From Escherichia phage RCIP0359: a stretch of DNA of 59,541 nt. The stretch is from sequence record PV778520.1; one strand, written 5' to 3'. The position numbers were made by a program, and so were the translations under genes. The notes beneath the pieces are model-generated. The model ran no database searches, had not been told where the DNA came from, and saw only the letters and a list, made by a program, of their open reading frames with translations. Below are positions 49,219 to 50,047 of this stretch, piece after piece; the stretch's first letter is position 1, and the number at the start of each line of letters is the position of its first letter.

Positions 49219-49376
49219 ACCTACCTCCTAACAGCACTATACACAATACATACCGGAGCAGCCACAATTATTCCACCTGAAGTTATGATGTGAGCGGATT
49301 GTTAATATATAACCACATGTGATGGAAAGTTTTGGGTAGGAATAGTTGGTGCTCCACAGTTTGCGCAATGTGACCG

Positions 49377-49416
49377 AAAGTTTTGTGAGTTTTGCGAAGT
49401 TTTGCGAAGTTTTGTG
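49377..49416. repeat. four tandem 10-bp repeats AAGTTTTG(C/T)G
   Basis: AAAGTTTTGT GAGTTTTGCG AAGTTTTGCG AAGTTTTGTG read directly; extra copies near 49326 and 49466. Confidence 0.6.
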
Positions 49417-49902
49417 GTGCCACTGTTGCTAAAAACTTTAATAAAAACAATAAGTTGGTGCAGTAAGTTTTTGCGTTTTGGGGTAAAACGCATTTTTTAC
49501 CCTAACACCCAAATCCCGACTGTTAGTAAAAAACGTATATAAATCAATAGCATAGATACTAAATGAATAGTGAATGGAATGGGTAGAAATCCAAATGATG
49601 GAAGTGGAATAAATTATTCCTACTTGATAGAATAATGGAATCGGTACTCCAGAGCGCAAAAACCTAAAACTTTCAGTCAACAGACTAAAAACGGATAGAA
49701 ACTAAAAGTTAATAAGTAATACCATAAATATATATAAAATAAGGATTTATTATTAATGTATATAGTACCTATTGGTATTATTTGAATGTTTTTGGGTCAT
49801 TGTTAAAAAGTCCCAAAACTCACAAAAAGTGAAAGAATACAATTCGTGACAGGATTGTTAATGGAATAAGGTGTATGGATATACAGTATTATTCCAGATT
49901 CC

Positions 49903-49932
49903 GGAATAATTGGAATAATGGAATAAATTATT
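49903..49932. repeat. GGAATAAT iteron cluster
   Basis: three tandem GGAATAAT copies plus inverted ATTATTCC at 49888-49895; further copies at 49604-49620 and 49630-49645. Confidence 0.55.
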
Positions 49933-50047
49933 GAACTATTGTAATCGGAAGGTATATCAAGCTATAATGCGCTTAATCGCGGGATATTGGAGGAGGACTT
50001 TATTGCGCGGTTAACCGGACCAGTAGGAGGGCTGGCCCGGCAGAAGT

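Follow-up and report, generated by a model that had tools for sequence, protein, structure and literature searches.

What does a virulent siphophage keep in 830 bp of DNA that show no sign of a gene? We address this question for Escherichia phage RCIP0359 (record PV778520.1), whose 59,541-bp sequence (hereafter the window) represents all or nearly all of the genome of an Escherichia Seuratvirus (Queuovirinae) and contains an origin-like noncoding region at 49219-50047, hereafter the gap. It lies between the phrog_11967 gene and a 108-aa gene (50048-50374), carries no coding signal, holds more repeats than shuffled sequence and is kept in about 34 Seuratvirus records. Full-text literature searches turned up no described origin or initiator for Seuratvirus, CAjan or Queuovirinae. 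An earlier note on this DNA had proposed either a replication origin or a regulatory hub, and our analysis supports both together: from the swapped repeat families, the near-invariant core at the melting minimum of the genome and the flip in strand composition, we consider it probable that the gap is the replication origin of the phage, of the iteron type served by a self-loading primase-helicase, and that it also has operator and promoter functions. The basis of the origin reading is comparative and structural-predictive.

Exchangeable repeat families and the tail of the primase-helicase

We compared the homologous gap from 20 loci, drawn from public phage records, IMG/VR contigs and metagenome contigs, and found one shared plan in all of them. 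It runs from the start of the primase operon through family A clusters in both orientations, a family B T-tract pair and further A sites to two B sites that abut a ACTTTCAGTCAAC box, then through a near-invariant AT core of about 64 bp to a B site, two inverted B sites, a rightward promoter-like TTGT(A/G)A-18-TATAAT and a hairpin. The window lineage has GGAATAA as its family A motif; CAjan and Seurat have CCCTATA, and WildeMaa and KurtStettler have CACTAT(A). For family B, WildeMaa shares (A)GTTTT(T)GNG with the window lineage, CAjan and KurtStettler carry GTTTATAG, and L018 and L023, two relatives from metagenomes, carry TTTTATAG; the exchange is site for site at homologous positions. The claim of two iteron families is therefore upheld, each being replaced as a set in related phages, and with six of nine possible A x B pairings observed, A and B types assort independently of each other. 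A similar plan, with motifs of their own, is found in Pantoea phage Vid5 and Hafnia phage yong3. Pseudomonas phage JG054 was rejected as a comparison, its primase-proximal gap being a short, GC-rich, divergent promoter region with few GTGTTAAT repeats. A distant relative, L024, whose primase (P0007) is 52% identical, has a separate 860-bp gap (599-1459 of its contig) packed with GGTACTAT, CAGTACC and ATGCACA repeats.

The family B type follows the type of the primase-helicase C-terminus. The primase-helicase gene (46148-48484, minus strand) encodes 778 aa with, by Pfam and PHROG matches, an archaeo-eukaryotic primase (AEP) PrimPol domain, a helix bundle, a DUF3987 helicase region and a winged helix; this last domain, at about aa 698-778 (46151-46393, minus strand), is the proposed reader of family B, the winged-helix fold of the tail being a prediction. 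In 20 of 20 loci, and across the six A x B combinations, the B types GTTTTG, GTTTAT and TTTTATA correspond to primase C-terminal types I, II and III. Over residues 1-280, which comprise the AEP primase and the helix bundle, types I and II do not differ at all (100% identity), and divergence sets in at about residue 300; beyond residue 280 their identity is about 70% on average (20-90% by 40-residue window) and in the last 100 residues 20-55%. Between types I and III the helicase part is 85% identical and the last 88 residues are 34% identical. The divergent block of DNA spans 46.2-47.6 kb with at least 88% identity on both flanks, and such a mosaic primase-helicase gene implies an intragenic recombination at about window position 47600.

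This pattern bears on whether B type and primase type covary through simple linkage, an explanation that loses weight because the N-terminal segment is identical and the flanks of the divergent block are highly similar. In a scan of 40 kb from the non-structural part of the genome against one H/I, one H/II and one C/II genome, the 3' two-thirds of the primase gene was, the gap aside, the only large block splitting type I from type II, with minor exceptions at 34.2-34.6 kb and in two single bins. The former (34200-34599), the only further segment to distinguish type I and type II genomes over more than one bin, forms the middle of a 270-aa open reading frame (ORF; 33974-34786, minus strand) with no Pfam match, the identities being 98% versus 76-81%. 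The likeliest reader of the T-tract family (AAGTTTTGYG) is the C-terminal winged helix of the primase-helicase, not the small helix-turn-helix (HTH) or AP2 proteins encoded nearby, although the matching of site and domain is a correlation only. A database search with the primase tail alone returned a single match. A free-standing 170-aa protein, P0001 from a JGI contig, is 39% identical to the C-terminal 179 residues of the primase-helicase, so that the origin-binding-like module also exists as a separate gene.

Another part of the same protein could in principle have read the B motif. The N-terminal AEP and helix-bundle domains are homologous to those of the NrS-1 primase (Pfam PF22763; PDB 6k9a/6a9w), and the NrS-1 primase-polymerase recognises 5'-TTTGGTTA-3' and 5'-GTG-3' on templates (PMC8718748), sites that resemble GTTTTGGG and TTTTGTG. 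Since the N-terminal 280 residues are identical across B types, recognition of the NrS-1 kind cannot explain the motif switch, and the helix-bundle domain was dismissed as the B-motif reader. The B sites could, at most, have priming sites within them.

The repeat sites and the AT-rich core

The repeats in the gap are far beyond chance. Against 2000 dinucleotide-preserving shuffles, in which 7-mers with at least five copies number 0.24 on average, the gap has five such 7-mers, a number reached in 0 of the 2000; GGAATAA has 8 of its 17 genome copies within the gap (probability of the maximum 7-mer count reaching 8, 0.0085), and the 8-mer GGAATAAT occurs there in five exact copies. We found no enrichment of the A and B motifs elsewhere in the genome, and a supposed second motif copy at about 24 kb was rejected, the three GGAATAA sites there lying inside genes and at chance level. 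The only other segment of the genome with a comparably high 7-mer count (11 copies) is 38000-38900, which holds several tandem GCTGCT-type repeats overlapping a 294-aa ORF (38412-39296, minus strand).

From left to right, the sites begin with a family A GGAATAA at 49268-49274 (minus strand) and a second A site, GGAATAGT, at 49339-49346 (plus strand), which together span 49268-49346 and enclose a B site, AAGTTTTGGG, at 49327-49336 (plus strand). They are followed by a tandem array of four B sites on the plus strand, AAGTTTTGTG, AGTTTTGCG, AAGTTTTGCG and AAGTTTTGTG (49378-49416), whose T-tracts are in helical phase. The earlier note had described this array, at 49377-49416, as 10-bp repeats of exact periodicity; Tandem Repeats Finder does report an array there (49378-49414, period 10, 3.8 copies), but the AGTTTTG starts at 49379, 49388, 49398 and 49408 give spacings of 9, 10 and 10, so that the array stands and the exact period does not. 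A central B pair, AAGTTTTTGCG and GTTTTGGGG (49465-49483, plus strand), overlaps a terminator-like hairpin at 49472-49492 (plus strand), which we rejected as a conserved element as other lineages keep the B-site pairs and no conserved hairpin. The central A cluster (49576-49643) consists of GGAATGG at 49576, the GGAATAA-A-TTATTCC palindrome noted earlier, which is indeed present as GGAATAAATTATTCC at 49606-49620 and is common to L018 and STP-SP5, and AGAATAATGGAATCG at 49629-49643.

The sites next to the core were placed, together with the ACTTTCAGTCAAC box, from an alignment of nine loci. To the left, two B sites on the minus strand, CAAAAAC and TAAAACTT (49657-49681), abut the box (49669-49681) directly beside the AT core, and type II relatives have TATAAAC TTATAAAC at the homologous positions. 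To the right, within 49788-49829, lie GTTTTTGGG (49788-49796, plus strand), CCCAAAAC (49812-49819, minus strand) and CACAAAAA (49821-49828, minus strand), which are again swapped site for site, for GTTTATAG/ATAAAC/CTATAAA in type II and TTTTATAG/CTATAAAA in type III. Further right, a cluster of five GGAATAA (49863-49932; starts at 49863 plus, 49889 minus, 49903 plus, 49912 plus and 49920 plus) lies within a replacement about 49 bp longer than the sequence most relatives have there, and is restricted to the GGAATAA lineages and Dru_SM1. The expectation of at least seven GGAATAA-type copies thus holds, with eight in the gap, while the two sub-ranges given for them miss the copy at 49268. A 17-nt direct repeat, GTGA(G/C)(C/A)GGATTGTTAAT, at 49290-49306 and 49846-49862 (88% identical) brackets most of the region; both of its copies adjoin a GGAATAA site and contain a minus-strand TTAACA hexamer of -35 type.

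Between the inner B sites lies the candidate DNA unwinding element (49694-49793), which is 83% A+T. Its nearest-neighbour free energy (dG) of -101.7, against a genome mean of -135.7 (standard deviation 7.5; 100-bp windows), marks the melting minimum of the genome, and the next least stable site outside the gap is 13 kcal/mol per 100 bp more stable. The AT-rich stretch pointed out before at 49680-49800 therefore contains the least stable 100-bp duplex of the genome. Its segment 49722-49785 (about 64 bp) hardly varies across the lineages and keeps 91% identity even in the Salmonella phage STP-SP5, whose gap as a whole matches that of the window at 72%, its A sites at 86%, its B sites at 81% and its spacers at 62%, and in which the phased tandem B array is retained with the same phasing. 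In five close relatives, variable positions make up 3.8% of the A and B sites versus 13.7% of the rest of the gap (p = 6e-5). Comparison of these sequences indicates that the repeats and the core are under purifying selection across lineages.

Strand composition changes at the same place. Cumulative GC skew has its minimum at 49.0-49.4 kb, and among genes of the same (minus) strand the skew at third codon positions (GC3 skew) goes from -0.052 on the left side of the gap to +0.176 on its right side (Fisher p = 2.8e-4); as the flip is seen among same-strand genes, gene orientation does not explain it. The gap does not fit a DnaA-dependent origin, which has a cluster of DnaA boxes, GATC sites and 13-mer repeats. 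It contains no exact DnaA box (TTATNCACA), one copy with one mismatch and no cluster, and no GATC, the single copy in the scanned segment 49150-50100 falling in the flanking phrog_11967 gene; the scan of that segment also found no perfect site for integration host factor. We found no similarity of the gap to plasmids either, and a resemblance to plasmid origins was rejected.

Promoters, small DNA-binding proteins and coding potential

The gap sits within a long block of leftward genes (23.6-51.8 kb), which follows the rightward structural genes (1-23.5 kb) and precedes a rightward block of small genes that extends from 52.1 kb to the end of the window; around the gap, the sequence has 95-98% identity to the phages ECP2304, OddieOddie, GottfriedDienst and Skure. 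To its left, on the minus strand, lie the phrog_11967 gene (49003-49218) for a 71-aa protein with a MerR/excisionase-type winged HTH fold, a gene for a 101-aa AP2-like protein (48726-49031) and, before the primase-helicase gene, the gene of a 97-aa protein (48494-48787). A consensus scan places a candidate promoter for the leftward phrog_11967/AP2/primase operon at 49267-49294 (minus strand); it stands some 40 nt upstream of the leading gene of the operon and has an extended -10, TGGAATAAT, which overlaps a family A site. At the right border, a sigma-70-like promoter, TTGTAA-18-TATAAT (49939-49968, plus strand), is conserved in all lineages and points away from the core.

Such elements raise the question of whether the gap is purely a hub of transcriptional control, in which the A and B sites are operators for regulators of expression timing and replication starts elsewhere or by recombination. 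The gap has six promoter-like sites on both strands where 3.5 are expected. The overlap of a family A site with the -10 of the putative operon promoter has counterparts in phages of the WildeMaa/SA126VB and CAjan types, in which A sites overlap promoter-like sequences beside the gene start (one of them annotated in SA126VB); the Xis/MerR/Cox-like fold of the small neighbouring protein is typical of regulators, and in some relatives the rightward promoter drives HNH genes. However, pure control would leave unexplained why family B changes in step with the winged helix of the primase-helicase, why B sites stand on both sides of the melting minimum and why strand composition flips among same-strand genes. 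More than 20 sites over 700 bp are also far above the usual need of operators, and a genome scan found no A or B motifs at other operon starts. We therefore regard control alone as unlikely; the repeats do overlap promoter-like elements, and the regulatory hub is part of the picture, not an alternative to it.

Which protein reads family A is less clear than for family B: the AP2-like and the phrog_11967 proteins are both candidates, and by sequence comparison neither assignment is consistent. The phrog_11967 protein, which is also a candidate operator-binding protein, follows the A type in most lineages, but L018 has GGAATAA sites with a phrog_11967 protein only 37% identical to that of the window and L023 has CCCTATA sites with an H-type protein; these two cases break the correlation, and the protein was not upheld as the sole reader. 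A phrog_27223 protein of 250-260 aa follows CCCTATA versus CACTATA and is absent from every GGAATAA genome. An AP2-domain protein is encoded beside the primase in every GGAATAA-bearing genome, including Dru_SM1, which has the right-hand cluster only, but these domains are 29-45% identical to that of the window, the exception being the close relative L006 with 88%. The family (also at L012 2609-3133, L018 5408-5995, L019 4013-4636 and L025 2938-3393) is one of HNH_3+AP2 homing endonucleases, intact in Dru_SM1 and degenerate or truncated in other relatives, and the window copy is its free-standing AP2 part, a remnant without HNH.

In several relatives, HNH/AP2 endonuclease genes or their remnants flank the gap on both sides, which brings up the reading of the gap as a scar of homing endonucleases or, alternatively, as a recognition region for packaging (pac/cos), with repeats that have no function in replication. 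The right GGAATAA cluster, as a lineage-specific replacement, would fit a scar, and the fold of the phrog_11967 protein is shared with the N-domains of small terminases. A packaging site is, however, expected near the large terminase gene, whose start is window position 1, some 10 kb away from the gap; and a scar would be expected neither to show purifying selection on repeats and core across lineages nor to keep its architecture in phages of other hosts (Vid5, yong3). We consider a packaging site or a scar to be the least credible of the explanations weighed here.

The right border could instead be the start of a noncoding RNA gene, the promoter at 49939-49968 giving rise to a short structured transcript (49975-50045) whose regulatory sites would lie in the remainder of the gap. 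The plus strand of 49939-50040 has a promoter-like element followed by two small hairpins and GGAGG-rich sequence; the second, conserved hairpin, CCGGACCAG-N8-CTGGCCCGG (50015-50040), is annotated as a minus-strand terminator in SA126VB and is kept with a different sequence in L018 and L023. The promoter with about 75 nt downstream, including the two hairpins, is retained where the 108-aa gene is deleted (SA126VB, VogelGryff and phiG7), which favours an RNA gene. Against this, there is no Rfam match above noise, the RNAalifold covariation term for the promoter-proximal transcript is unfavourable (+1.38), with no convincing covariation, and no T-run terminator follows the hairpin. Furthermore, a rightward ORF follows the promoter in SLUR76 (an annotated HNH endonuclease), Dru_SM1 (an annotated hypothetical protein) and STP-SP5 (HNH-like by translation), although not in the window, and an RNA would at best account for the last 100 bp and for neither the repeats nor the core. 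An RNA locus thus appears very improbable.

The gap as a whole was also rejected as a known RNA gene, as we found no tRNA or tmRNA in it and its best matches in Rfam 15 reach 18 bits where the gathering thresholds are 51 and 74. Nor did it prove to be coding, in line with the view that it holds no convincing coding sequence. Its longest ORFs, 49302-49493 (minus strand, 63 aa; gp67 in the OddieOddie annotation) and 49438-49680 (minus strand, 80 aa), have 9/7/6 and 6/7/5 variable sites at codon positions 1/2/3 among the five close relatives and so no third-position excess. Neither has a PHROG match, and the sole Pfam match among gap ORFs is a weak, sub-threshold one of the 63-aa ORF to DUF2116 (E = 0.099).

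Probable origin type, proposed mechanism and meaning

The best PDB sequence match of the primase is 7OLA (PriRep5 of SaPI5, a Staphylococcus aureus pathogenicity island, E = 8e-11), with the NrS-1 primase also matched. PriRep5 is a primase-helicase fusion of 797 aa, compared with 778 aa here, with an N-terminal AEP primase in both. Initiators of the SaPI Rep family are helicases that load themselves, with a fused primase in SaPI5; their C-terminal winged helix reads iterons of 5-6 nt that lie on both sides of an AT-rich centre in opposite orientations, and they melt the origin without ATP (PMC9371898). The phage protein is, by domain prediction, a candidate initiator of the same build, with a helicase, a C-terminal winged helix as in SaPI Rep/PriRep and a fused primase. 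In the gap, as in the SaPI origin, short iterons flank an AT-rich centre and the nearest sites are oppositely oriented: two minus-strand sites (49657-49672) stand on one side of the 83% A+T core and one plus-strand and two minus-strand sites (49788-49828) on the other, so that there are at least two per side. Specificity pairs of iteron and initiator domain are likewise found, by correlation. There are differences as well: detectable sequence homology is limited to the primase domain; the sites here have 7-9 nt, not 5-6; there is a further site family that swaps independently, with a putative small accessory DNA-binding protein; the AT core is invariant in sequence; an outward promoter borders the region; and the replicon is a virulent siphophage, whereas the SaPI is a satellite.

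Other phage origins share parts of this arrangement. The alpha protein of P4 (about 777 aa) unites a primase and a helicase with an origin-binding winged helix at its C-terminus, which recognises short repeats (type I iterons), but the alpha primase is of a different class and P4 has two separated cis regions, ori and crr, whereas all sites here fall in one 830-bp region. In lambdoid phages, iterons stand beside an AT-rich region, and the specificity of the O initiator and the iteron sequence are exchanged together among related phages. The lambda ori, however, is located within the O gene and depends on host DnaB that the P protein delivers, while the origin proposed here is intergenic, belongs to a phage that brings its own helicase-primase and has two site families that assort independently.

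From this likeness to known systems, we propose the following mechanism. The 778-aa primase-helicase would use its C-terminal winged helix to bind the (A)GTTTT(T)GNG sites of family B, as the covariation suggests; these sites are laid out as a phased left tandem array, a central pair and the core-flanking sites. Hexamers may then assemble on either side of 49694-49793, by analogy, and melt the core, after which the AEP domain of the same protein would prime. The GGAATAA sites would be read by a small accessory DNA-binding protein of the same operon, either the AP2-like one or the phrog_11967 protein of Xis/MerR type. Since one family A site overlaps the -10 of the operon promoter, this reader probably exerts autoregulation on the operon as well. 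More speculatively, the promoter at the right border, firing away from the core, may aid opening through negative supercoiling.

Several observations sit less well with an origin of this kind. The covariation of B type and primase rests on about six independent lineages (permutation p of about 0.01-0.07), and shared descent is a possible source of it. Type II, yong3 and Vid5 share the motif GTTTATAG with C-terminal domains only 33-46% identical, so the relation of domain to motif is not one to one, and the Vid5 counterpart of the gap is 5 kb away from the primase gene. No candidate reader tracks the family A type consistently across lineages. A SaPI origin lies directly downstream of the initiator gene, whereas the gap is 0.7 kb upstream of the primase start codon, at the head of the operon, and three small genes intervene. 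The AT core is closer to invariant than an unwinding element requires, which suggests an additional specific reader or a promoter, and with promoter-like elements and operator-like overlaps in the gap some of the conservation is possibly transcriptional. Finally, the block right of the gap used for GC3 skew is only 1.8 kb, and GC skew in phages is dominated by transcription.

Even with these reservations, an origin with regulatory functions remains the reading we favour, and a more specific and clearly more tentative possibility is that it is a two-key origin, one set of sites being read by the winged helix of the primase-helicase and the second by an interchangeable accessory protein, with keys that recombine freely and a diversity of at least 3 x 3 site types. 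If true, there would be replicon specificity groups among virulent phages that co-infect one host, a phage counterpart of plasmid incompatibility groups, and co-infecting relatives could neither fire nor steal each other's origins.

The Queuovirinae (Seuratvirus, Nonagvirus and relatives) are common coliphages, present in the BASEL collection of E. coli phages and studied for their 7-deazaguanine DNA. A defined origin and a predicted initiator domain would offer a direct target for learning how AEP primase-helicase fusions start lytic phage replication, and would supply an annotation rule for the large gap, which in many records is empty or annotated with spurious ORFs. The swapped pairs of site and domain may serve as a natural set for reading the DNA-recognition code of winged helices, and in phage engineering, minimal replicons and chimeras would have to keep origin and primase tail matched.
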